A stretch of DNA of 63,010 nt, taken from a virus. Lineage: Duplodnaviria > Caudoviricetes. This document shows positions 4,935-60,781 of the stretch, piece by piece (the first letter of the stretch is position 1; each line of letters starts with the position of its first letter). Both the position numbers and the translations under genes were made by a program. Under the pieces are notes generated by a model, which was not told the DNA's origin, searched no databases, and saw nothing but the letters and a program-made list of their open reading frames with translations. Where the stretch lies: IMG/VR virus record IMGVR_UViG_3300044638_001695, positions 1-63,010 of that record; one strand, given 5' to 3'.

Positions 4935-5060
4935 CCTTTAGACGAGCCAAAGCCACTGCGGGTGCAGACGGCCTGTAAGTGTATGTTTTCATCCTCTTCC
5001 CCAAACCACGATCCCTCAACCGTGTGAAGCAATTCTAAACATGAATTCTGGTTATTGCAA

Positions 5061-5080
5061 TACTGTTATTTTGTACAGCT
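5061..5080. promoter_or_regulatory. Candidate SOS (LexA) box
   Basis: taCTGTtattttgtACAGct = CTGT-N8-ACAG, intergenic, upstream of the ParB-helicase-primase genes. Confidence 0.35.
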
Positions 5081-5322
5081 TATAACATTGTTAACTGAAC
5101 AACAAACTCTTCCTTCGCTTGTTGATACTCTTCGTCTACAAACGGTTTATCTAACTTCTTGTTATTAACTTGACACATGACACACACCCGTCTACCAAGG
5201 TTTGTTTCACTTACTGAGTATTTCTTTTTCTTCATGCTACTAGTTGAGTACAACTTGCACACTGTATCAAACCCAGTCCAGTAGTGTGCTGTTCCGTCGC
5301 TAACTTTCTTAATCAGATACAT
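5080..5322 (-). CDS. Hypothetical protein, possible Zn-binding
   Basis: AAGGAG RBS; H...C and CVMC residues. Confidence 0.65.
   Translation of the reverse strand: MYLIKKVSDGTAHYWTGFDTVCKLYSTSSMKKKKYSVSETNLGRRVCVMCQVNNKKLDKPFVDEEYQQAKEEFVVQLTML
5081..5093 (-). promoter_or_regulatory. Core copy of the phage palindromic operator
   Basis: Minus strand TAACAATGTTATA, identical to the core of the 60759 site. Confidence 0.5.
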
Positions 5323-5344
5323 GACAACTCCTTATGCAGATTAG

Positions 5345-5715
5345 GAAACAGAGTATAGATTTGGTCAAATACTCCCCAAAGGCGGCTCATCTGAGTCACC
5401 TTCGAGAAGAATCCAATGTCATGCGGATTTAGGGGTCCAGTTGCATGAGTTTGGGTTGCGCCTATCGAGAAATGTTCTATCGCAACTAATCAGACTGTAA
5501 GCCCCCATTGTTCGAGGCCACGTTGCCGCTCTGACCGAGCTTGACACTACGGGGCGCTTGTTTCCGGCTCTCCCACCAGATTGACCTGATGGAGCTGTTC
5601 ATCGCGTGATTCAAACCCGTAGCCGCTATCTACTCCCACGGCTGGCGCTTACGCTTAGTTCGCCACTTCCATCTGCATACCCAACGCGGTTGTCCCTGAA
5701 CGTATATGCAAATGA
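5345..5715 (-). ncRNA. Putative large structured non-coding RNA
   Basis: No credible ORF; chain of stems 5351-56/5369-74, 5455-60/5481-86, 5547-53/5616-22, 5621-25/5639-43, 5643-47/5661-65, 5674-79/5705-10; strand inferred from context. Confidence 0.55.
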
Positions 5716-5730
5716 GTTTGCGACAGCCAT

Positions 5731-5885
5731 AAAAAAACCCTTATTGAAAGATACGAGCTTTAGGCTTGGTTGCCGCATAAGAGGGATGCACGACCATCTT
5801 CTCTCAGCTTTGACGAAGCCCGCTCCTTCAATAAGGGTTCGGGTCGCTATCGTGGGCTACCGATGGGTTACCAATCCACCAGATG
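5731..5885 (-). promoter_or_regulatory. Structured leader/attenuator (c4-like architecture)
   Basis: Perfect 13-bp stem 5736-5748/5827-5839 ending in a U-tract on the minus strand; inner helix with G-U pairs favouring the minus strand. Confidence 0.6.
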
Positions 5886-5891
5886 AAACGA

Positions 5892-5920
5892 ATATTAACG
5901 GACAAATAAACAAAATGCAA
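5892..5920 (-). promoter_or_regulatory. Sigma70-type promoter
   Basis: TTGCAT-17 nt-TAATAT on the minus strand. Confidence 0.65.
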
Positions 5921-6030
5921 GTGTGGGGTCACATAAAGCAGTGTCGAAATCGGATCGGCGAAGAGTGCGAGTGCCTGCCAAGGTACTCATGGTTCCATAG
6001 CCACAGGGCGCTAACCCCTGTTCCCCACGA
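5921..6030 (-). ncRNA. Putative ~108-nt multi-stem small RNA
   Basis: Closing stem GUGGGG/CCCCAC; hairpins CAGGG-GUUAGCG-CCCUG, GAGUACCU/AGGCACUC, CAC-UGCUUUAU-GUG; TATTAT 6 nt upstream; strand uncertain. Confidence 0.5.
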
Positions 6031-6044
6031 GAAAATAATACTAC

Positions 6045-6137
6045 AAAAGGTGAAGCCCCGAACTTTTTGAGCTGGGGCTTCGGGGGATGCACGAGGAGAG
6101 TGCTCTGTCGGAGAAACAGACCAAGGAGGGACTTGGT
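6045..6137 (-). ncRNA. Putative sRNA with three CUCC-loop hairpins and a terminator
   Basis: Back-to-back hairpins 6121-6136, 6104-6120, 6089-6103 with loops UCCCUC, UUCUCCG, UCUCCUC; GC stem 6052-59/6074-81 then U4. Confidence 0.6.
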
Positions 6138-6142
6138 ATCTT

Positions 6143-6180
6143 AATGTAACAAAAAAAAGGGCAACCTACAAGATTGCCCC
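6143..6180 (-). terminator. Intrinsic terminator overlapping a promoter
   Basis: GGGCAA/TTGCCC stem plus U8; the same bases give TTGTAG-17-TACATT with extended TG. Confidence 0.7.
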
Positions 6181-6209
6181 TAAACAAGGAGATGCCCTGA
6201 ACTAGGCAC
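6151..6209 (-). ncRNA. Putative ~59-nt sRNA with exposed anti-SD
   Basis: 5' hairpin GUGCCU/GGGCAU, single-stranded CUCCUUGUUUA, then terminator. Confidence 0.5.
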
Positions 6210-6214
6210 ACTTC

Positions 6215-6252
6215 ATTCTAACAAAAAAAAAGGGAATCTTGCAGGATTCCCT
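6215..6252 (-). terminator. Intrinsic terminator after the ruvC-like gene, overlapping a promoter
   Basis: GGGAATC/GATTCCC stem plus U9; CTGCAA-18-TAGAAT with extended TG; degenerate direct repeat of 6143-6180. Confidence 0.7.
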
Positions 6253-6282
6253 CGGGTGTCCACAAAGGCTATAAATGGACAA

Positions 6283-6744
6283 TTAATTGTACCTCAACCA
6301 AAGAGCTATAAGTAAAGCGTCCGCCCTTCCATGATGTTTAGCCAGTCGTAACTGAGCGTCAGGCCATATCCTACGAGCTAACTCCAGACTGGCTTTCTTC
6401 TCCGTGCCTATAAGCCCGTGGTGCTTCTTCCATACCTGTGGGCGAACCAAGGTAAGGGTATCCCCAACAAGCGCTCCTACGGCCTCTATAGCGCCCGCTG
6501 CACGCATAAACTTCCCTGACGATGCAATGCCCTGCCCCGGCATAGTATGCACATCCTCTACGGCTATGTGGGTAGGTAGATCATTCCAGATTAACTCCAT
6601 CAACTCAACGGCATTGATACGCCCGTCTGTTGTTGGAAGATCACCACACCCTACATACAGGCCATCTTGATCAATAGCTCCCCACGCTCCGGAAGCACTG
6701 CCGGGATCAATTCCTACGAAAACTTTCTTTTCCACGCTTGACAT
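6283..6744 (-). CDS. RuvC-like Holliday junction resolvase
   Basis: VGIDPG, IAVEDV, VRPQVWKK, GRADALLIA. Confidence 0.85.
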   Translation of the reverse strand: MSSVEKKVFVGIDPGSASGAWGAIDQDGLYVGCGDLPTTDGRINAVELMELIWNDLPTHIAVEDVHTMPGQGIASSGKFMRAAGAIEAVGALVGDTLTLVRPQVWKKHHGLIGTEKKASLELARRIWPDAQLRLAKHHGRADALLIALWLRYN

Positions 6745-11030: not shown

Positions 11031-11053
11031 ACACTGTAACACTGTTATAGTGT
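11031..11053 (+). promoter_or_regulatory. 23-bp palindromic operator / extended -10 promoter
   Basis: ACACTGTAACACTGTTATAGTGT; near-identical copies at 54496 and 60759. Confidence 0.75.
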
Positions 11054-11347: not shown

Positions 11348-12132
11348 ATCCATACCTAATCACGGAACCGACTTGCATTAGCTTCTCTGGAGGCCGGACT
11401 TCTGCTTATATGCTTTATAAGGTGCTAGAGGCGCATGGCGGAAAGCTTCCAGACGATGCCGTGGTTTGTTTTGCTAACACCGGCAAAGAAGAGGAGGCAA
11501 CCCTGCAATTTGTGCATGACTGTGAGAAAAACTGGAACGCACCTATCGTATGGCTAGAGTACCAAGCAGAAAACCCAAAGTTTAAAGTTGTTGATTTCGA
11601 TACCGCTAGCAGGGCAGGAGAGCCGTTTGCAGCTCTGATTAAGAAGCGTAGCTACCTACCCAATCCAGTAGCCAGATTCTGCACCACGGAACTCAAGGTG
11701 CTAGCAATTGATAGGTACATGAAATCAATCGACAAGCCTGACTATGTAACTCTCGTAGGGATTCGAGCAGACGAGCCTAGACGGGTTGCAAAGATGAAAA
11801 CAAACAAAGACGAGAAGCTTACGCCTCTAGCAACAGATGGGGTAACAGAGGCAAAGGTTTGGCAATTCTGGAATCAGAATTCTTTTGATTTAACCTTGCC
11901 GAAGATCAGTGGTGCTTCTAATTGCGACCTTTGTTTCTTAAAAGGCGCGGGCATTATTGCTGGATTGATTTCTCAAAAGCCAGAACGAGCTATCTGGTGG
12001 GCAGATATGGAAAAACAAATTGGCGGCAGATTTTCTAAAGACAGGCCAACCTATGAACAGATGATGCAATACCAGAGGGATCAGATCCCCCTGTTTGATG
12101 ATGAAAGTATTGCTTGTTTCTGCGGAGATTAG
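11344..12132 (+). CDS. PAPS reductase family (PP-loop) protein
   Basis: ISFSGGRTS, FANTGKE, RFCTTELK, GIRADEPRR, NCDLCF. Confidence 0.85.
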   Translation: MNPYLITEPTCISFSGGRTSAYMLYKVLEAHGGKLPDDAVVCFANTGKEEEATLQFVHDCEKNWNAPIVWLEYQAENPKFKVVDFDTASRAGEPFAALIKKRSYLPNPVARFCTTELKVLAIDRYMKSIDKPDYVTLVGIRADEPRRVAKMKTNKDEKLTPLATDGVTEAKVWQFWNQNSFDLTLPKISGASNCDLCFLKGAGIIAGLISQKPERAIWWADMEKQIGGRFSKDRPTYEQMMQYQRDQIPLFDDESIACFCGD

Positions 12133-15100
12133 TTGTACTTCCTAACCTGATCGTTAAACTGTTTCATCATTCTAGTTTTTTGATCGTCAAGTTTCTTGAT
12201 GCGCTCAATAGGTTCTTGTTTCTCAACCATTTCTCTACGCCGTCTATTTAATTTAGATATTTCGTTCTCAAGCGTATTTGCGCGACGCCACATAGAGGCT
12301 TCTGGGTTGTTGCGCATATACTCTGTAACGCTTTCTCTGCGCTCAATGCGGCCTTTAATAGACGCCTCATGCTCAGCCATCTTGATGACGTTGCTATAGA
12401 AGCGCTGAGATATAGCAGGGGGAGAGTTGAGGTCGCCAACAATCTTACCGGCGATAGGAACCTTGTAGTCTGGCGTTTCCTTGTCTTGTATTTTATTGGA
12501 AACATAAGTCAAAATGCCGGACACTTCACGATATACGCCGCCACCAAGCTGTTTGCCTAGATAGTCAATCTGGTCTGCCGTTGGACTCAATGCGCCTCGT
12601 TTGTCCTTATCACCAAACGTAATAGTATTAATAAACTCGGCTAAGAATTGACTAATCGAAGGAGATGGATCGCGAGAAAGTTTATAACCCGGAACCGGAG
12701 ATGTTGCACGGGACTCCCTTGAGATTGGCCTACCAAAAGCGTCTTTATTCTCAATGAGAGCAACAATTGGATCTGCAACGGTAGGTGCAACCATTTGCAG
12801 AAGTCCACCGCCACCAAGCGGGTTAAATGCGTTAGCCAGCATTGTCACCGCATTAACAAGCTGTGGCGTAACCGATTGCCCTTTAGATGCTTTAGAAGCT
12901 GTCTCAAAGAATGTGCGACCAAGGTTTGGGAATATGTTGAATCCAAACGGCATAGGCCACATCACATACTTGCCGTCACCCGTTGGGATGATCAGGTTCT
13001 TTTGCTTTATAAATTCTGTTGGCTCATCTTCATCGAAACCTGCCATAGCCAAAGCAATTGCCTGAGCAATACCAATTCCAATACCAGCCGCCATGATCGT
13101 CTTGCCTTTCGGACCAGACAGTGTTTCATACAAGCGTTTTGTACCTTGAGCCGACGCATTAAAGAACGCATATAGAGAGCCAGCCGTAACGCCAAAAGTG
13201 CCTTTACGGTTAAAGTTAACGGTAATGTTCTTTGCAATGTCAGCCGCACGAGCCTTCATATCTTCTAATTGCTTTTCGCTGATTTTGCCGCCCGCATTGT
13301 TTGCTTCGGCTTCTTTCTTAAATTTATCAAGTGCTACACGATAGGCAGAAAGACGAGTGGCATTTTCCAAAACATCGTTGACATTAGAAATCCAGTTAGC
13401 AACCTTATAAGCCCCGCTCATGGTGATGCCACGATCAAGAGCTGCTAACTCACGATTAACAATGTTTGTAGATTGATTTAGTCTGGCAAACTGATCCTTG
13501 TATCCAACCTTGCCACCATGCTTTGTGAAGTCATCCCAAGATCCGTCTCCAGTATCGCTAAATGGCTTGTCAGCAGTTTGCTCACGCACAGCTTTGTAAA
13601 TGTCAGGTATAGCGGAGAACGTCCCCGTGAATACAGCATTCTTATCTTCTGCAATAGGCGTTGTGGAAAGGTTTAAACGAGCGCCCTGAATGTCACGCGC
13701 AAAGTTCCAAGCACCGAAGATAAGGTTGTATTGCGTGTTAATGGCAGAGAAGAACCGAGTAATAGGCGCAATCGTCTGCATGACAGAGCCTAGCTGCGGA
13801 ACATCCAAGCCTCGCAAAGACTGCACCATTTGCATGGAACGATCATTCTTTGGATTGAAAAACACAAATCTATCTTTCCCGTCCATCTTTACGGGTAGCA
13901 CGTAATCACCATACTTGGCTGTCGTGTCTATATATCTATCAACAACACCGGTTTCTTTGTTAAACCTTTCCTTGGTAGGTTCAGCCATGATGTTTTTAAC
14001 AAAGGCTTCTGCATCCTGCCTAGAAAGATCAAACTTATCTTCCAGTTCTGCAACTAATAGATCTTTGTTTTTAATAGCGTCTGGACTAATTGCCATCCAG
14101 TATTCTGGATTGGGATTCATAACCGCTAAGCCATATACGGCGCGGTTAACTTTTTCTTTTTCGATGCGATGAACTGCAATCTCTCTGTTAGCCGCAATGT
14201 TCGAAAGAACATCAATGACATCTTTAGCAGATCCAGTACGAGACTTGGCGTAGTCACCAACCCTGCGATAGCTTGAGCTTGGCAGAGAATAGTCACTCTC
14301 TTCACGGCGCAGAGGCACATAAAACTCAAACAGCGATTCCCAAGCTTCTTTCTGCTCTTTAGTGATGACACCGCCTTCCTCAAGCAAGTCACGAGTCTTT
14401 TTAAGAACCTCGTCTACTTTTTTGGCAAGCGACTCAAATACTTTCTTTTTAGCAGGATCAAGAGCCTTGAAATAGTCTTCTCTCTGCTGATAAGAAACGC
14501 CAGAGCCTTTATCTTGCTTGGTAGGGTCATTTGGGTTGCGTTTGGCAATAAGGTCGTTAGCCTCTTCTGCATGGCGCATCACCAAGTATTCAGTTAAGGC
14601 TTCATCGGTAATGTTGCCGTCTTTCATCTCTTTGATGATTGGGCGGAACTCAAGGCTAAGAAAGTCTTTTACCTGTCTTTCTGCCCGACCATGAGCAAGC
14701 GTTTCAGCGCGGTAAGCATTTAAGTCGTTGCCAATCTCACCAACGATTTTTGTAATTTCCTTTTGCACCAGATCTAGGTTGCGATGTTTATCGAATAACT
14801 GGATTGCTCTAGTATCTTTCCATGTCATTGGCTCTAACGATTGCCATGTTGCAGCGGGTTTTGGCTTTAATGGAAGAGACTTGGGTGCGGGCAATACGCT
14901 GGGTAGCGTTGCCTGCGAAGGCTTATTTGTTGGCTTAGGAATATTATATGTAGGCAGCATCTTTCCAACCATGCGTACATAATCCGACAACATTGGACTC
15001 TTGCGTTCTTTATCAGCATTGATGACGCTGTTAAATGTTTTGTATACGGAACTTTTGTTATCAAAACCCAAAACATTTTTTAACGCTTCAAACAAACCTT

Positions 15101-18100
15101 TTACAGATGTTTTAAACCTCTGCCATCCTCCGCCCAAATACGAAGCCATAAGAGGCTCGGCGTTCACTGCCCAAAACTCAGATGGATTAATGTATTGGTA
15201 GTATGAATAATCCGGCATTGCATCTGCTGCAAGTTGCATAGTTTCGTTGGTTGGGTTTTCAATAAAATTACCAACCGTTACAAAAAAAGCCTTTTCTTCA
15301 TCTGTCTTTGCATTTCGTGTTGCTTTAAGCAGGGACTTACCCCAAGCGTCAACCAATGCAGCTTGGGCGTCCTGAGTCATTAATTGCTCAAGAGAGTGCG
15401 TAACTTCATGGCGTAATGTAGATGGGTTTGTAGTTCCTTCTGATTCTTTGAAAAGACGCACAATTTTTGTTAACGCAAAGAATTGACCAGCCGCGTCAAG
15501 ATCGGCGGCCTTACCAGTAGCAGTCTTAACGGACAGCCTTAACCCATCCAACAGACTTGGATTTTTTTTGTACATTGCGTCAACGACATCGTAAACCTCT
15601 TGCGATATATTGCCATCTGCAAGTTCCTTTGCCGCCCGAGCCAAGAAATCAACCGGTGATGTTTTTGGTTCTTTTGTTGACTCGATGACGTCTTTTAAAT
15701 CTTGCGCTTGAAGAGACAAATATTTGTATGATTCTTTATCAAACGGCTTGCTTTTGTCTTTAACAAAACGACGCTGAATTGCTGCCAACTTTTGTTTTAA
15801 GCTTGCATACTTAGCAATATTTTCTTTGCGAATTTGTTCAGCAGAGTTGGAAGAAGCAATTTCTTGGTCAGGAAATATGGTTCTTAAATTGCTTGTTGAT
15901 TCCATAAAATCATCAAACGAATCCCATGACATATCTACCTTATCGGGATCAAGGTTGTCTACAACTTTGCCATCTTCTGTAAGGTAAAAAGTAAAACCGT
16001 CTAGCGTTTTGAACTCTTTGCTTTTGTTTTTCTTTCCGACGTTATAAAGAAACTCATCTTTAGACGCATACTTGACATCTTTAGCAAGTAAGAAGCGACC
16101 AATTTGATAAAGCTCACTAGCACTAGAGACAGGCTCACCAGTCGAGCGATCATAGAAATACCCACGACGAGATGGGTCAAAACCAACTTGAGTCCATGCG
16201 CTGTCTTTGGATAGCTCTTTTACCTTATTTAAAGTTTCTTCTGGGCTTGTGTTAACCCATTCGCCTTCTGCCGTTTGCAATGGCTCTTTGACAGGGTTGA
16301 TCCCCATGTTTAAGCTTTTTTCCTGACTCCTAGGTGCAAACGTGACGTTTTTAATATGCCCAGTGCTGGCGTATTTAATGACTTTTCCTGCCGTCTTGTA
16401 AGGAAGGCCTGTTTTCGGATCGTCGTTTGCCTTGCCTGTATGGATAGACACAACAGGAAGTCCCGCATTTAGCGCAGGAACGTCCATTCTTAATCCAACT
16501 TTTGTTCCATTTGGTATGGATTTTTCTACCCGTGCAGCGTCTACAGGATCGTGGAAAAAATCTACAATCTTTTGCAATGGAGTGGGTGGCTCTAAAACAT
16601 CCATTGAGACTTCAGCTATAGGCGTGTATTTGTCTGCGTAAGCGTTAAAGTCTTCTCTAGACATCTTCCCTTGCTGAAATAACCTACCAGCCGCTACGAC
16701 ATAAGGGTTGCGACCTTTTGGAGTCTTCTGACCTGTTATGTCCAATTCAGGCAATTCTTTTTTGTCTACAAATATATCTTTCTGACCAGTTAGGTCTTCC
16801 TCTGCCGTCTTGCCAAGCTCAAACTCGCCAGCAGCTTTCTCGCTACGGGCGGCGATATCTTTGCGGTCTTGCTCAGACTTGGCCTTAGCGTCAGCCTCAC
16901 GGTCAGCGCGAGCCTTGTCTGCGGCAGCTTTATCGGCAGCTTCTTGCTTGGCCTTTAACTCTTCTTCGCTTGGGCTTGTAAGTTCCGCTGGTGGCGGCGG
17001 TACATTAACTTGGCTAACATCTCCACGGCCTCCTTGCTTGGCTGCTTGGGCAATTGCTTTGGCGAGTTCTGATTTTGCACGGTTGTAATACTCCAATTCG
17101 GATAGGTTTTGAGCGCCTTTGATCCCGTCAATAATTGCACCGGAATCCAAACCTAGTTTTTGCATTTGCCTTTCAAGCTCAGCAACCTCGGCCTGCAACT
17201 CTGGGCTTGCCTTTGTAAATCCAATTACATTTAAGTCTTGTGGCGTGTAGCCAGCATCTAACATAATTTGCTTGGCTGTGTTTTCTACAACCTTTGCCGC
17301 TGGCACTTTAGCGGGAGCCTCGCCAAACATATCAGGCTCTTGAGAGCGCGATGCTTCGGCATTTACGTCAGTAGCAATACGACGCAAGCCTTCACCAATT
17401 TTCTTCGCAGAACGAGTATTGTTTGCAAACAATTGCAAGACTTGCTTGGCAATAGAGTCTTCGCTAATTAACTCTTGTTGAGCAATAACATCGGCTAGTT
17501 TTTGTCCTTGTCTGCTAGCATTAATAGCCATTTCAGCCGACTGAACAACTTGCGGACGTATATCGTACTCACCTGTTCCGGCAAGCTGCGCCATTTGTGG
17601 AGCCGCCTGAGATAGGCCGTTAATAATGTTAGCCGCATCAACAGACTTTGCCTCTGCTGCAAGTGAAACTAACGCATCATTGCCATAGGCTTTATAGAAA
17701 ATAGCAGCGTTTAGGCGATCATAAGCTTGGCGCGTTGGGCGTCCCTGCTTGTCAATCAACTCTTGCTGCTCGGATTGCGGCATTGCAGCAACGAATCCAC
17801 GAACCGTTTCTGGACTGATTGCTCCATCTTCACGGAACTCAAGCCCGTCAAGATCAATTCGGTTTGCATCGTTCTTAGCTCGTTCTGTTGCCGACAAAGC
17901 AAGAGTAGAGGAGGTATTGCTTTCATCCGCAATATCTTGAGTAACCTGATCCTGCGGCATAATGCGCACTAAAATCGGGTTCTTAATTCTGTTAATGACG
18001 TCCGGGCTAATGCCGTGAATATCATCCGCAAGAAGGTCTTGTTTGTACTGACCCATCGTGCCACGAACATAGCCTTCCTTGAGGCCGGCAATACGCCCGT

Positions 18101-19817
18101 TTGTGACGGCTTTGAAACCGGTAAATTCAGGGCTGGCATACTCTGGGATAGAAGATCCATCAACCGCATTGGACGCTATCAATTGATCTGCATCGACAAC
18201 AGCATATTGAACGGGTATTTTGCGGTTTGTTTTAGCGGAAACAACAGAACCCTGTCTTCCGACTTGCTGTGCTGGCAATGTTTGTGCGCCAAAGACAACT
18301 GGAGCGCCCTCAAGGAATGAGTTTGAAAATGCAACTCTTGAGTAGTCAGGCTTATTGGCTATTGCATTCATTTGCGCAATAGACGTTGGGCTGCTACGCT
18401 CACGGTTTTGTAAAATCGTATTAGCTGCAACACCACCTTCTGCAACCGGCTCTGCTGTCTCAGCGGCTTTTGGCGTCTCAACTAGTTCGCCCTTGTCATT
18501 CAATGGAATAATATCTTCTGCTGAAGGTTGCACAATTTTTGGTTGTGCAGGTTGTGCAACAGGAGGTAATGTACGCTGCTCAGCAGACTCTGGTGCAGCT
18601 CCTAGTGGAAGCTCTAACTCAGGCGGCTCTACTTGCACGGCTTGTGCCGGAGTAGCTTGTGTAATTTGTGCGGGGGTAGTTTGTGCAACTTGTGCAGGCT
18701 TAATAGGCAATTGCCCTTGACTGCGCTGAAATTCTTCTTCCATTGCAGCTTGGTCTAGCGCAACATCGGACGGTACGCCTTCAGGTAAAGCGACCGGAGG
18801 AGCGCCCGGGGGGGCGGCTGGAGGAGCAGTCTCAATTGTCTCCTGTTCTTCAGCAGGCGTCTCTGGCGCTTTTGGGGCCTGAGCAGCCATCTGACGAGCC
18901 TGATCTCGACGCATAGCTGTGCCGGGTATAGAAATTGTGCCGCCTAATATCCCGCCGCCGATAAAACTTTCTACAAATTCATTAATGGCATCCTGATCGC
19001 CTAGCGTCAGCCCTGCCTGTAATCTTTCTAAGAATTGTTGACCAACTTCTGTCATACCCTCTATGCCGCCTGTACGAGCGCCCTGAGCGCCGTAAGCCGC
19101 TGTGCTACGAACGATACCTTGCTTAGCAATTTCCGCAGCCTGAGCCTCTGTAACTTCTTTTCCGGCTTTACCAAACAATCTTTGTACGCCCGGGATCATG
19201 CGGAATGACAGGGTTTCTAGCGCGGATTGTGGAATGGCGGTAGCAATAGCGCCAGTAAGGTTGGTGTCTTCAAGCGCGAAGCCCCGTTCTTGCTGTCGCT
19301 GAAGATTAGATCCCGCAAATTGAATGGCTGATGCTAGGCCACTAATGCCTGTAGCCACTGCACCGGAAGCGCCTGCTGCTGTTGCAACGCCCGCCGCCGC
19401 AATGGGGGCGATCATGTAAGGGATAGATTGACCAAGCGTCTCAACAAATTTTCCCGAGAAATCGGTTGACCATCCGCCCTCTATGGGCTTAAACGCTTTT
19501 TTGCCTTTCTCTTCCGCCTCTTCTTGGATTTGCTTGGCTTTCTCTACGTCCATTATTCCAATACGACCAGCAAGACCTGCGAGGCCACCTTTGAGTCCCT
19601 GATAGCTCGAGTAAATAGACGTATCAAGATCACTTCGCGCACCAATGCCGGGCTGACCTTCTACGCCAAAACGATTGCGAATAGCGGCCTGTGTTGCTGC
19701 GTTAGCTTGTGTGTAATTCTCATCCTGCGGCGCATACTTGGTGAAGATGGCAGCTTTAGTCTCCTCGTTAGCGTTGACGTAATTAGGATCATTGAGAATT
19801 TCCGACAAGCTTGCCAT
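12129..19817 (-). CDS. Large polyvalent virion/ejection protein (DdrB-like ParB domain, zincin HExxH, LPD38-like C terminus)
   Basis: 2562 aa; LQNRERS/YAVVDADQLIASN/NGRIAG; LRHEVTH...EFWA; ENATRLSAY, NITVNFNRKG, YAFFNASAQG, PMPFGF, ENKDAFGRPI. Confidence 0.75.
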   Translation of the reverse strand: MASLSEILNDPNYVNANEETKAAIFTKYAPQDENYTQANAATQAAIRNRFGVEGQPGIGARSDLDTSIYSSYQGLKGGLAGLAGRIGIMDVEKAKQIQEEAEEKGKKAFKPIEGGWSTDFSGKFVETLGQSIPYMIAPIAAAGVATAAGASGAVATGISGLASAIQFAGSNLQRQQERGFALEDTNLTGAIATAIPQSALETLSFRMIPGVQRLFGKAGKEVTEAQAAEIAKQGIVRSTAAYGAQGARTGGIEGMTEVGQQFLERLQAGLTLGDQDAINEFVESFIGGGILGGTISIPGTAMRRDQARQMAAQAPKAPETPAEEQETIETAPPAAPPGAPPVALPEGVPSDVALDQAAMEEEFQRSQGQLPIKPAQVAQTTPAQITQATPAQAVQVEPPELELPLGAAPESAEQRTLPPVAQPAQPKIVQPSAEDIIPLNDKGELVETPKAAETAEPVAEGGVAANTILQNRERSSPTSIAQMNAIANKPDYSRVAFSNSFLEGAPVVFGAQTLPAQQVGRQGSVVSAKTNRKIPVQYAVVDADQLIASNAVDGSSIPEYASPEFTGFKAVTNGRIAGLKEGYVRGTMGQYKQDLLADDIHGISPDVINRIKNPILVRIMPQDQVTQDIADESNTSSTLALSATERAKNDANRIDLDGLEFREDGAISPETVRGFVAAMPQSEQQELIDKQGRPTRQAYDRLNAAIFYKAYGNDALVSLAAEAKSVDAANIINGLSQAAPQMAQLAGTGEYDIRPQVVQSAEMAINASRQGQKLADVIAQQELISEDSIAKQVLQLFANNTRSAKKIGEGLRRIATDVNAEASRSQEPDMFGEAPAKVPAAKVVENTAKQIMLDAGYTPQDLNVIGFTKASPELQAEVAELERQMQKLGLDSGAIIDGIKGAQNLSELEYYNRAKSELAKAIAQAAKQGGRGDVSQVNVPPPPAELTSPSEEELKAKQEAADKAAADKARADREADAKAKSEQDRKDIAARSEKAAGEFELGKTAEEDLTGQKDIFVDKKELPELDITGQKTPKGRNPYVVAAGRLFQQGKMSREDFNAYADKYTPIAEVSMDVLEPPTPLQKIVDFFHDPVDAARVEKSIPNGTKVGLRMDVPALNAGLPVVSIHTGKANDDPKTGLPYKTAGKVIKYASTGHIKNVTFAPRSQEKSLNMGINPVKEPLQTAEGEWVNTSPEETLNKVKELSKDSAWTQVGFDPSRRGYFYDRSTGEPVSSASELYQIGRFLLAKDVKYASKDEFLYNVGKKNKSKEFKTLDGFTFYLTEDGKVVDNLDPDKVDMSWDSFDDFMESTSNLRTIFPDQEIASSNSAEQIRKENIAKYASLKQKLAAIQRRFVKDKSKPFDKESYKYLSLQAQDLKDVIESTKEPKTSPVDFLARAAKELADGNISQEVYDVVDAMYKKNPSLLDGLRLSVKTATGKAADLDAAGQFFALTKIVRLFKESEGTTNPSTLRHEVTHSLEQLMTQDAQAALVDAWGKSLLKATRNAKTDEEKAFFVTVGNFIENPTNETMQLAADAMPDYSYYQYINPSEFWAVNAEPLMASYLGGGWQRFKTSVKGLFEALKNVLGFDNKSSVYKTFNSVINADKERKSPMLSDYVRMVGKMLPTYNIPKPTNKPSQATLPSVLPAPKSLPLKPKPAATWQSLEPMTWKDTRAIQLFDKHRNLDLVQKEITKIVGEIGNDLNAYRAETLAHGRAERQVKDFLSLEFRPIIKEMKDGNITDEALTEYLVMRHAEEANDLIAKRNPNDPTKQDKGSGVSYQQREDYFKALDPAKKKVFESLAKKVDEVLKKTRDLLEEGGVITKEQKEAWESLFEFYVPLRREESDYSLPSSSYRRVGDYAKSRTGSAKDVIDVLSNIAANREIAVHRIEKEKVNRAVYGLAVMNPNPEYWMAISPDAIKNKDLLVAELEDKFDLSRQDAEAFVKNIMAEPTKERFNKETGVVDRYIDTTAKYGDYVLPVKMDGKDRFVFFNPKNDRSMQMVQSLRGLDVPQLGSVMQTIAPITRFFSAINTQYNLIFGAWNFARDIQGARLNLSTTPIAEDKNAVFTGTFSAIPDIYKAVREQTADKPFSDTGDGSWDDFTKHGGKVGYKDQFARLNQSTNIVNRELAALDRGITMSGAYKVANWISNVNDVLENATRLSAYRVALDKFKKEAEANNAGGKISEKQLEDMKARAADIAKNITVNFNRKGTFGVTAGSLYAFFNASAQGTKRLYETLSGPKGKTIMAAGIGIGIAQAIALAMAGFDEDEPTEFIKQKNLIIPTGDGKYVMWPMPFGFNIFPNLGRTFFETASKASKGQSVTPQLVNAVTMLANAFNPLGGGGLLQMVAPTVADPIVALIENKDAFGRPISRESRATSPVPGYKLSRDPSPSISQFLAEFINTITFGDKDKRGALSPTADQIDYLGKQLGGGVYREVSGILTYVSNKIQDKETPDYKVPIAGKIVGDLNSPPAISQRFYSNVIKMAEHEASIKGRIERRESVTEYMRNNPEASMWRRANTLENEISKLNRRRREMVEKQEPIERIKKLDDQKTRMMKQFNDQVRKYN

Positions 19818-54495: not shown

Positions 54496-54518
54496 ACACT
54501 ATAACAATGTTACAGTGT
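54496..54518 (-). promoter_or_regulatory. 23-bp palindromic operator / extended -10 promoter
   Basis: Minus strand ACACTGTAACATTGTTATAGTGT, 50 bp upstream of the LexA-like gene. Confidence 0.75.
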
Positions 54519-58949: not shown

Positions 58950-59111
58950 ATGAACATCACACCAGACCAAATTAGCAAGATCAGAGAAGCAATGCACCTC
59001 GCAGGGTACTTTGCAGAAAACCCAAGCAAAGAGCAAACCGCCCAAGACAGGTCAACAGTTAGAACGGCATGGGAAGTAATTTATTCAATCGAACGAGGAG
59101 AGCAAGAATGA
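58950..59111 (+). CDS. MNIT-family paralog 1 (53 aa, not in ORF track)
   Basis: MNITPDQISKIREAMHLAGYF...DRSTVRTAWEVIYSIE. Confidence 0.7.
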   Translation: MNITPDQISKIREAMHLAGYFAENPSKEQTAQDRSTVRTAWEVIYSIERGEQE

Positions 59112-60758: not shown

Positions 60759-60781
60759 ACACTGTAACAATGTTATAGTGT
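60759..60781 (+). promoter_or_regulatory. 23-bp palindromic operator / extended -10 promoter
   Basis: ACACTGTAACAATGTTATAGTGT in an intergenic gap. Confidence 0.75.

Follow-up and report, generated by a model that had tools for sequence, protein, structure and literature searches.

What does the longest stretch without a credible gene in a phage genome from lake water encode? The genome, referred to below as the window, is the complete IMG/VR virus record IMGVR_UViG_3300044638_001695 (Caudoviricetes; 63,010 bp, with terminal repeats), and the stretch is a 960-nt island (5323-6282) that follows the minus-strand gene of a RuvC-like Holliday-junction resolvase (6283-6744). An earlier note, made from the letters alone, had proposed that part of this island (6045-6252) holds tandem small RNA (sRNA) genes that display anti-Shine-Dalgarno (anti-SD) loops and are built from terminators doubling as promoters, and all the elements that it described are present on the minus strand where it had placed them. 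One of them, sRNA-B, is on the sequence evidence a real non-coding RNA gene, with a promoter, a terminator, no open reading frame (ORF) and covarying stems. By analogy with known C-rich-loop sRNAs, we consider it about an even bet that sRNA-B is an independently transcribed sRNA of freshwater phages that acts in trans on ribosome-binding sites (RBSs).

In the window, sRNA-B measures about 94 nt (about 6137-6044, minus strand). Three hairpins with the loops UCCCUC (6137-6120), UUCUCCG (6119-6105) and UCUCCUC (6103-6089) are followed by a single-stranded AUCCCCC (6088-6082) and by terminator 3 (6081-6052) with the tail ACCUUUUGU; the U-tract of this terminator is short and interrupted (CCUUUUGU). 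Upstream, the U-tract of terminator 2 (6181-6151) carries a TG-extended -10 element, TGTTACATT (6151-6143), as the putative sRNA-B promoter, with a -35-like TTGTAG in the terminator loop. With a start about 7 nt past the -10 element, the RNA would begin at the foot of hairpin 1.

With the RuvC-like protein as a handle, we fetched 20 loci from IMG/VR and 80 from metagenomes. A homologue of sRNA-B lies directly downstream only where the RuvC-like protein is 62-88% identical to that of the window; at more distant RuvC loci, protein genes stand in its place. Twelve further copies were obtained, in contigs of related uncultured phages, and after removal of re-fetched contigs 13 distinct sequences were counted (window, L173, L002, L175, L007, L003, L005, L179, L180, L182, L004, L008 and L181), from which the covariance model R1 was built. 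The members score 55.8-104.6 bits and the window copy 101.3 bits. Run over 196 sources (those outside L006, L012, L127-L172, L174, L176-L178, L183, L185, L186 and L252 onwards), R1 returned only the 13 known members, besides terminator-only fragments and an 11.9-bit match in L018, and it found nothing in four genomes searched for the host. The pattern CCAAGNCCCTCCTTGGTC matched 45 stretches of IMG/VR. Five are true copies and come from contigs that the RuvC search had already given; we rejected the remaining 40 as coding sequence in unrelated high-GC phages. Among 151 genomes of one order, three gave R1 matches at 27-34 bits, none of which was accepted as a homologue, one match being a tRNA 3′ end with a terminator and two being copies of a C-rich stretch with a terminator. 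The near-identical bacterial copies L394 and L397 (genome G023; 33-34 bits) combine a single-stranded CUCCCCUCCC, a hairpin with the loop CUCACCC and a terminator; this stretch, not accepted as an sRNA-B homologue, may be an unrelated C-rich sRNA of the host.

The earlier note had suggested looking at whether homologues conserve the loops while their stems covary, and this is the pattern across the 13 sequences. In their alignment, 95.3% of the 258 pair cells are standard and both sides have changed in nine of the 22 pairs, which was equalled in two of 500 shuffles; the covariation score is 0.265, versus 0.143 for shuffled alignments and at most 0.092 for slid partners. The stem of hairpin 1 reads ACCAAG/CUUGGU in one group and GCCGAU/AUCGGC in another, with three compensated positions and a G-U intermediate in L002, that of hairpin 2 switches from CUGU/ACAG to CUUCC/GGAAG, and in the terminator stem GAAGCC becomes GAAUCC, the partner changing too. 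The number of hairpins ranges from one to three, and CUCC, CCCUC or CCCC motifs persist in loops or single strands; helix 3 is absent in eight homologues, in which the CU-rich segment is single-stranded. Loop 1 presents UCCCUC, ACCCUC, CCCC, UCCCCC or ACCCCCUC, loop 2 UCUCC or UCCCUC, and the third motif is UCUCCUC, CCCCUC or a single-stranded UCUCCUU, followed by a single-stranded run of four to five C. Over the 13 homologues, the mean unpaired probability is 0.89 for the CU-rich motifs versus 0.33 for other positions, and pyrimidines make up 74-96% of the unpaired body nucleotides in every copy. No reading frame is conserved within sRNA-B, two homologues having stops in all six frames, and the lengths vary from 86 to 103 nt.

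The promoter is conserved as well: all 13 copies carry TGnTAnAnT, with 5-6 nt between its end and hairpin 1. In eight copies the U-tract of an upstream terminator forms the promoter spacer, and a TTG stands in the terminator loop at -35 distance in seven of these. The other five have the promoter after the RuvC gene and no terminator, with a TTG (TTGCAG, TTGTCG or TTGTCT) at -35 distance in four. The proposed doubling of a terminator as a promoter is thus real and recurrent; since five copies have the promoter without it, the promoter is the conserved unit and the terminator overlap a recurrent packaging of it. The composite TTTTTGNTANANT (a T-run, TG, any nucleotide and TAnAnT) occurs three times in the 63-kb genome versus 0.39 expected, two of the three sites being the array promoters. 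The plain TGnTAnAnT is depleted genome-wide (20 sites versus 37 expected), on one reading because the phage genome avoids stray copies.

Strand assignment follows from several signals. U-rich tails come after terminator 3 on the minus strand in all 13 homologues, and a terminator scan made only minus-strand calls here, namely terminators 1 and 2, with hairpins A and 1 flagged in addition (terminator 1 and hairpin A are described below with element A). In the sRNA-B alignment G-U cells outnumber A-C cells by 17 to 2, so that standard pairing would drop from 95.3% to 89.5% on the opposite strand. Over the 243-nt stretch, the minus-strand fold has z = -5.51 (none of 200 shuffles as good), compared with z = -2.54 (three of 200) for the plus strand. 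The minus-only U-tracts, the excess of G-U over A-C and the promoter of the homologues support minus-strand transcription, as the earlier note had it, and promoter, covariation and unpaired motifs uphold its view of sRNA-B as an sRNA gene in its own right, which is conserved and leaves its CU-rich loops exposed. From these signals we infer its transcription and its 5′ and 3′ ends.

No family of Rfam 15 matched any part of the window at gathering scores. Up to an E-value of 10, the best matches within 5000-6400 were ncr1241 (26.3 bits for a gathering score of 60), suhB/mmgR (20.3 for 41) and Bp1_781 (18.4 for 80), all sub-threshold. By its architecture only, sRNA-B would fall into the functional class of C-rich-loop sRNAs, which have more than one C/U-rich motif unpaired in a loop or a single strand, as do 13 of 13 homologues of sRNA-B. 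The sRNA sX13 of Xanthomonas has about 100 nt and three stable stem-loops displaying C-rich motifs, does not require Hfq, and has a proposed or shown role in repressing mRNAs with G-rich motifs at or near the RBS or start site (PMC3771888). It is chromosomal, with an unstructured 5′ region and CCCC or CCCCC loops (PMC3771888), whereas sRNA-B comes from a phage and has a hairpin at its 5′ end, loops of the CUCC type and a C5 run that is single-stranded; homology between the two is not supported, because no Rfam match appeared at E-values up to 10.

The earlier note had likened the array to the cuckoo RNAs of Alphaproteobacteria (RSs0680/CcsR, ar14/NfeR1), in which each loop carries the anti-SD-like motif CCUCCUCCC (PMC4615179). 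Both have adjacent hairpins (two to four in the cuckoo RNAs) with anti-SD-like pyrimidine loops and a module number that varies between homologues (PMC4615179). Cuckoo hairpins measure 24-50 nt with loops of 9-27 nt (PMC4615179), compared with 15-18 nt and 6-7 nt for the three hairpins of sRNA-B, and CCTCCTCCC with at most one mismatch does not occur in 6040-6260, all eight matches in the window lying elsewhere. Given the absence of CCUCCUCCC, the short loops and the lack of an Rfam match, sRNA-B is not a member of the cuckoo RNA family.

Redundant UCCC or C-rich motifs also pair with RBSs in RNAIII, whose UCCC loops bind them (PMC4615179), in the multicopy LhrC (PMC4132741), in 6C (PMC6486639) and in SprX (PMC4005690); these RNAs belong to Gram-positive bacteria of unrelated lineages and have no sequence or model similarity to sRNA-B. 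Its carriers, unlike theirs, are uncultured and apparently non-integrated freshwater phages. SprX is said to be carried on a staphylococcal converting phage. In phages P1 and P7, the loops of the c4 antisense RNA pair around an RBS and block translation (reviewed in PMC12197685), with dedicated complementary sequences for one mRNA target, ant; the motifs of sRNA-B, in contrast, are generic and anti-SD-like, and no dedicated target was found in the phage. Searches of the open-access literature brought up no earlier description of an environmental phage with a multi-loop anti-SD-like sRNA, and none of terminator-promoter cassettes arranged in this way.

How could such an RNA act? Host RNA polymerase most likely initiates at the TG-extended -10 element, which in the window is built on the U-tract of the preceding terminator, and transcription would run from the foot of hairpin 1 to terminator 3. 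Three or four pyrimidine motifs (UCCCUC, UCUCC, UCUCCUC and CCCCC) would then be exposed; they resemble the CCUCC core of the 16S anti-SD and would pair in trans with purine-rich Shine-Dalgarno (SD) sequences or G-rich stretches at host or phage RBSs, blocking the 30S subunit, which is the mode of action of other C-rich-loop sRNAs, several of them independent of Hfq. Translational silencing is our best inference for sRNA-B, made plausible by its likeness to sX13, RNAIII, LhrC, 6C and the cuckoo RNAs. The short, interrupted U-tail of terminator 3 fits an Hfq-independent RNA, a point that leans on general knowledge of Hfq-binding 3′ tails.

Pairing with the start regions of the phage genes is consistent with this proposal. 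The phage genes are SD-led, 78% of them having an anti-SD duplex below -4 kcal/mol, and for each loop an oligonucleotide pairs far better with the 20 nt upstream of starts than with controls from coding sequence (p between 7e-8 and 2e-20), which supports a generic complementarity of the loops to SD sequences. There is a modest bias toward small early genes. The four RBS matches listed in the earlier note do exist and precede start codons; as phage targets they are not specific, since the pairing of the loops with start regions is about as generic as that of the 16S anti-SD. A search corrected for accessibility, which is crude and dominated by long duplexes (we prefer the loop-oligonucleotide test), gave one outstanding site, the RBS (59093-59102) of a 57-aa gene at 59108, which would form 10 consecutive pairs with hairpin 3 at a net -13.1 kcal/mol, compared with -4.8 kcal/mol for the strongest among 150 coding controls.

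A number of observations weigh against an independently transcribed RNA that acts in trans on RBSs. The 16S anti-SD gives the same pairing pattern as the loops, including the bias for early over late genes, and a reversed-sRNA control reaches -9.7 kcal/mol on another start region. In L002, the one relative in which conservation of the target site was checked, the orthologue of the 59108 gene (75% identical) has a different RBS, CUGGGGGU, which would pair over at most 7 bp, with the C-run, although hairpin 3 of L002 is identical to that of the window. As loop pairing is generic and the best site is not conserved in L002, the specific targets put forward in the earlier note are not supported. 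These tests cover the start regions of phage genes. Concerning the gene itself, a scan for the sigma-70 consensus called neither array promoter, because their -35 hexamers are weak, and the promoter call rests on the TG-extended -10 element and its conservation. Helix 3 is weak (78% of cells paired), the family is small (n = 13), and the covariation counts are tilted towards the structure and do not stand for independent events, since the alignment is model-fitted and the sequences are related. Lastly, a 190-nt contig from a lake metatranscriptome, which covers 6109-6185 and 6277-6339 and in an L002-like form links the end of the RuvC gene through terminator 2 to the 5′ half of sRNA-B, attests the sequence in an RNA library and shows neither the ends nor the strand of the RNA. 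In the RNA-library runs at most 0.05 of the sampled words were present, and cover by these libraries rests on assembled contigs, the uncovered parts being uninformative.

The display of several similar short motifs in loops, together with the failure to find a specific conserved mRNA target in phage start regions, would also suit a protein decoy, in which the pyrimidine-rich loops bind an RNA-binding protein of the host or the phage and titrate or recruit it. Ribosomal protein S1, a cold-shock or KH-domain protein and Rho, which prefers C-rich RNA, are the candidates that come to mind. We regard this explanation as unlikely, if still worth keeping in view: no candidate protein was identified, the neighbours of the array are replication and recombination genes, the known C-rich-loop sRNAs work by pairing, and the motifs are single-stranded in some homologues, which suits base pairing at least as well as protein binding.

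The second part of the array, element A (6209-6151, minus strand), consists of hairpin A (6209-6192) with the conserved loop GUUCA, a single-stranded CUCCUUG (6191-6185) and terminator 2. It is preceded by terminator 1 (6253-6223; 9-bp stem GAGGGAATC/GATTCCCTT, loop CTGCAA and nine T), whose U-tract carries the TG-extended -10 element TGTTAGAAT (6223-6215) as a putative element A promoter, and by an extra hairpin, GTCCA...TGGAC (6258-6280), just 3′ of the RuvC stop codon; all of these lie on the minus strand. Hairpin A and the terminator after it are kept in eight loci with covarying stems, and CUCCUUG in four of the eight. The RuvC stop codon falls inside the loop of hairpin A in L002 and L175, while hairpin A begins right after it in L007, L004, L008 and L181, so that in these six relatives element A is the RuvC 3′ untranslated region (UTR) and terminator. 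In L002 (about 2058) and L175 (about 1975), the RuvC frame is at least three codons longer than in the window and its stop is a TAG in the loop; translation termination and the 3′ hairpin therefore overlap.

Terminator 1 is absent in L002 and L175, and the extra hairpin, terminator 1 and TAGAAT stand between RuvC and element A only in the window and in L173/L174, where TAGAAT is kept about 60 nt from terminator 1. Ancestrally, element A would have served the RuvC-like gene as 3′ UTR and terminator, and in the lineage of the window the inserted module of hairpin, terminator and -10 element may have made it a separate transcript of about 60 nt, which is plausible and is the least secure part of the picture drawn by the earlier note. 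R1 detects sRNA-B only once in the window, so that element A and sRNA-B are not paralogues; the weak match of element A to suhB/mmgR lies well below the gathering score, as given above. To describe the locus as tandem sRNA genes thus goes too far: sRNA-B has the features of an independent sRNA gene, and element A has them only in part. Similarly, the two degenerate repeats seen by the earlier note share a T-run and a GTTAnAnT...AAG segment, the remainder aligning only loosely, so that a true repeat is not established; a cassette duplication that gave rise to terminators 1 and 2 with their promoters is possible.

The 3′ UTR position of element A in relatives, the presence of three intrinsic terminators within 210 nt and the metatranscriptome contig that continues from RuvC into sRNA-B could be taken to mean that the locus is punctuation only, a terminator stack with stabilizing 3′ structures that insulates the RuvC operon from the downstream RNA genes and yields no trans-acting product. 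This appears quite unlikely, since five of the 13 homologues have the sRNA-B promoter and body without an upstream terminator, terminators do not need loops that are conserved while stems covary, and the extended -10 element is invariant at a fixed distance in a genome that is otherwise depleted of TGnTAnAnT.

Two further RNAs adjoin sRNA-B on the minus strand. The first, ncRNA-C (non-coding RNA C; 6040-5923, the RNA itself at about 6028-5923, about 105 nt), is closed by GUGGGG/CCCCAC and has a -10-like TATTAT (6040-6035) right after the tail of terminator 3. Among 105 distinct IMG/VR matches to a pattern with 15 specified bases, 67 share its conserved blocks, which comprise a CAGGGG-UUAGCG-CCCUG hairpin, CCUUGGCAGGCACnnGCACUCU and a CUGCUUUAUG hairpin beside the 3′ strand. 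The second, ncRNA-D (5920-5731, the RNA at about 5884-5731, about 150 nt), has in the window the promoter TTGCAT-17-TAATAT (5920-5892) and ends in a strong terminator. An 18-mer of ncRNA-D occurs in 105 IMG/VR stretches, about 80 of which, all distinct, share the whole RNA; most whole copies are visibly preceded by a TTGACA/TATAAT-type promoter, and both sides have changed in 16 of 30 predicted pairs across 46 sequences. In a set with one genome per species the same 18-mer gave 23 matches, none with a flanking conserved motif and none representing ncRNA-D. The segment ACCAAGCC has two potential partners, GGCUUGG of the first hairpin loop and GGCUUCGU, a hint that ncRNA-D may form a pseudoknot or fold in alternative ways. 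Neither RNA has an Rfam match, and six strings taken from sRNA-B, ncRNA-C and ncRNA-D do not occur in those supplements of the IMG/VR structured-RNA catalogue (PMC10690425; 8,495 candidates) other than files 1, 2 and 4, which may include the alignments.

With ncRNA-C and ncRNA-D next to it, the array is part of an island of phage RNA genes that is modular in make-up; sRNA-B accompanies either of the two only in its own small clade. The compact arrangement of the genes, the -10-like element directly after terminator 3 and the read-through that its short, interrupted U-tract makes plausible would agree with sRNA-B being part of a common precursor with ncRNA-C and ncRNA-D, or with its loops folding in cis onto an SD sequence located on their own read-through RNA, such as the SD of the 80-aa gene at 5322. 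Such a role is very unlikely in our view: the nearest SD-led gene is about 720 nt away, about 100 other phage contigs have ncRNA-C and ncRNA-D and lack sRNA-B, R1 matched, among 100 sources, only the window and three loci re-fetched from known carriers, and ncRNA-D has its own promoter of the TTGACA-17-TATAAT type. As for a plus-strand RNA acting as a CsrA/RsmA sponge, the loop complements (GAGGGA, CGGAGAA and GAGGAGA) do hold GGA in hairpin loops, but this reading is disfavoured by the minus-strand U-tails of all 13 homologues and by the G-U/A-C imbalance, the plus strand folds less well and has no terminator or promoter call in 6040-6260, and no Rfam match to CsrB, RsmY or RsmZ was found, which together make it highly improbable.

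The remainder of the island (5323-5730, minus strand) comprises about 400 nt more without a clear gene. A 34-codon ORF, MAVANSFAYTFRDNRVGYADGSGEL..., whose ATG abuts the ncRNA-D terminator, recurs in L007, where it differs by one synonymous and one V-to-A change, and may be a small protein gene without an SD sequence; a lake metatranscriptome includes a 151-nt contig that spans 5455-5602. The ORFs listed in 5323-6282, of which the plus-strand ORF was scanned, have no Pfam family and cut across the conserved RNA structures, and blastn of 5300-6300 against 50,697 phage records gave no match.

The genome has an exact 127-bp repeat common to both ends and a G+C content of 46.6%, and the sequencing runs that contain the locus are lake, freshwater and drinking-water metagenomes. 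Its large terminase is 53-58% identical to those of the Pelagibacter phages HTVC027P and HTVC023P, of phage 023Pt_psg01 and of phage DSL-LC04, relatives that span different hosts (Pelagibacter phages and one ‘Gammaproteobacteria’ phage), and 48% identical to some cyanophage terminases, which places the phage in an aquatic group of roughly 60-kb phages. The genes flanking the RNA array have replication and recombination functions. The RuvC-like protein has no Pfam match and gave tblastn matches of 36-40% identity annotated as crossover junction endodeoxyribonuclease or Holliday junction resolvase; genes for a ParB-like protein, an SF2 helicase and a Toprim protein lie farther along on the minus strand, and the plus strand encodes a PD-(D/E)XK nuclease and an ERF recombinase. 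The largest gene (12129-19817, minus strand) encodes a polyvalent protein of 2,562 aa, which has two domains, LPD38 and a ddrB-like ParB. Neither tRNA nor tmRNA genes were detected in the genome. A 21-bp palindrome, CACTRTAACANTGTTAYAGTG, has three intergenic copies (11031-11053, 54496-54518 and 60759-60781); each half is a TGTTAYAGT extended -10-like motif, on opposite strands, and the palindrome is probably a phage operator or divergent promoter element.

Most phage regulatory RNAs described so far come from prophages in a small number of pathogens. The lake phages considered here, an uncultured clade, have a conserved sRNA that bears the hallmarks of the RBS-targeting C-rich-loop class and lies in a compact array in which the U-tract of a terminator serves as the spacer of the next TG-extended promoter, and the island around it points to at least two widespread phage RNA families without an Rfam entry. 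The terminator-promoter cassette would offer a simple route from a 3′ UTR to an sRNA gene; element A belongs to a 3′ UTR in some relatives and may be a unit of its own in the window. A bolder version, which we put forward as speculative and unlikely to hold in full, is that a virulent freshwater phage uses a mimic of the 16S anti-SD to sequester SD sites in bulk by means of RNA alone, with a copyable terminator-promoter cassette and a modular RNA island running from element A to ncRNA-D. If so, bulk sequestration could shut off host translation or the phage's own strongly SD-led early genes, and the cassette could be copied to create new sRNA genes. If sRNA-B acts as we propose, these phages would control translation by generic anti-SD mimicry.

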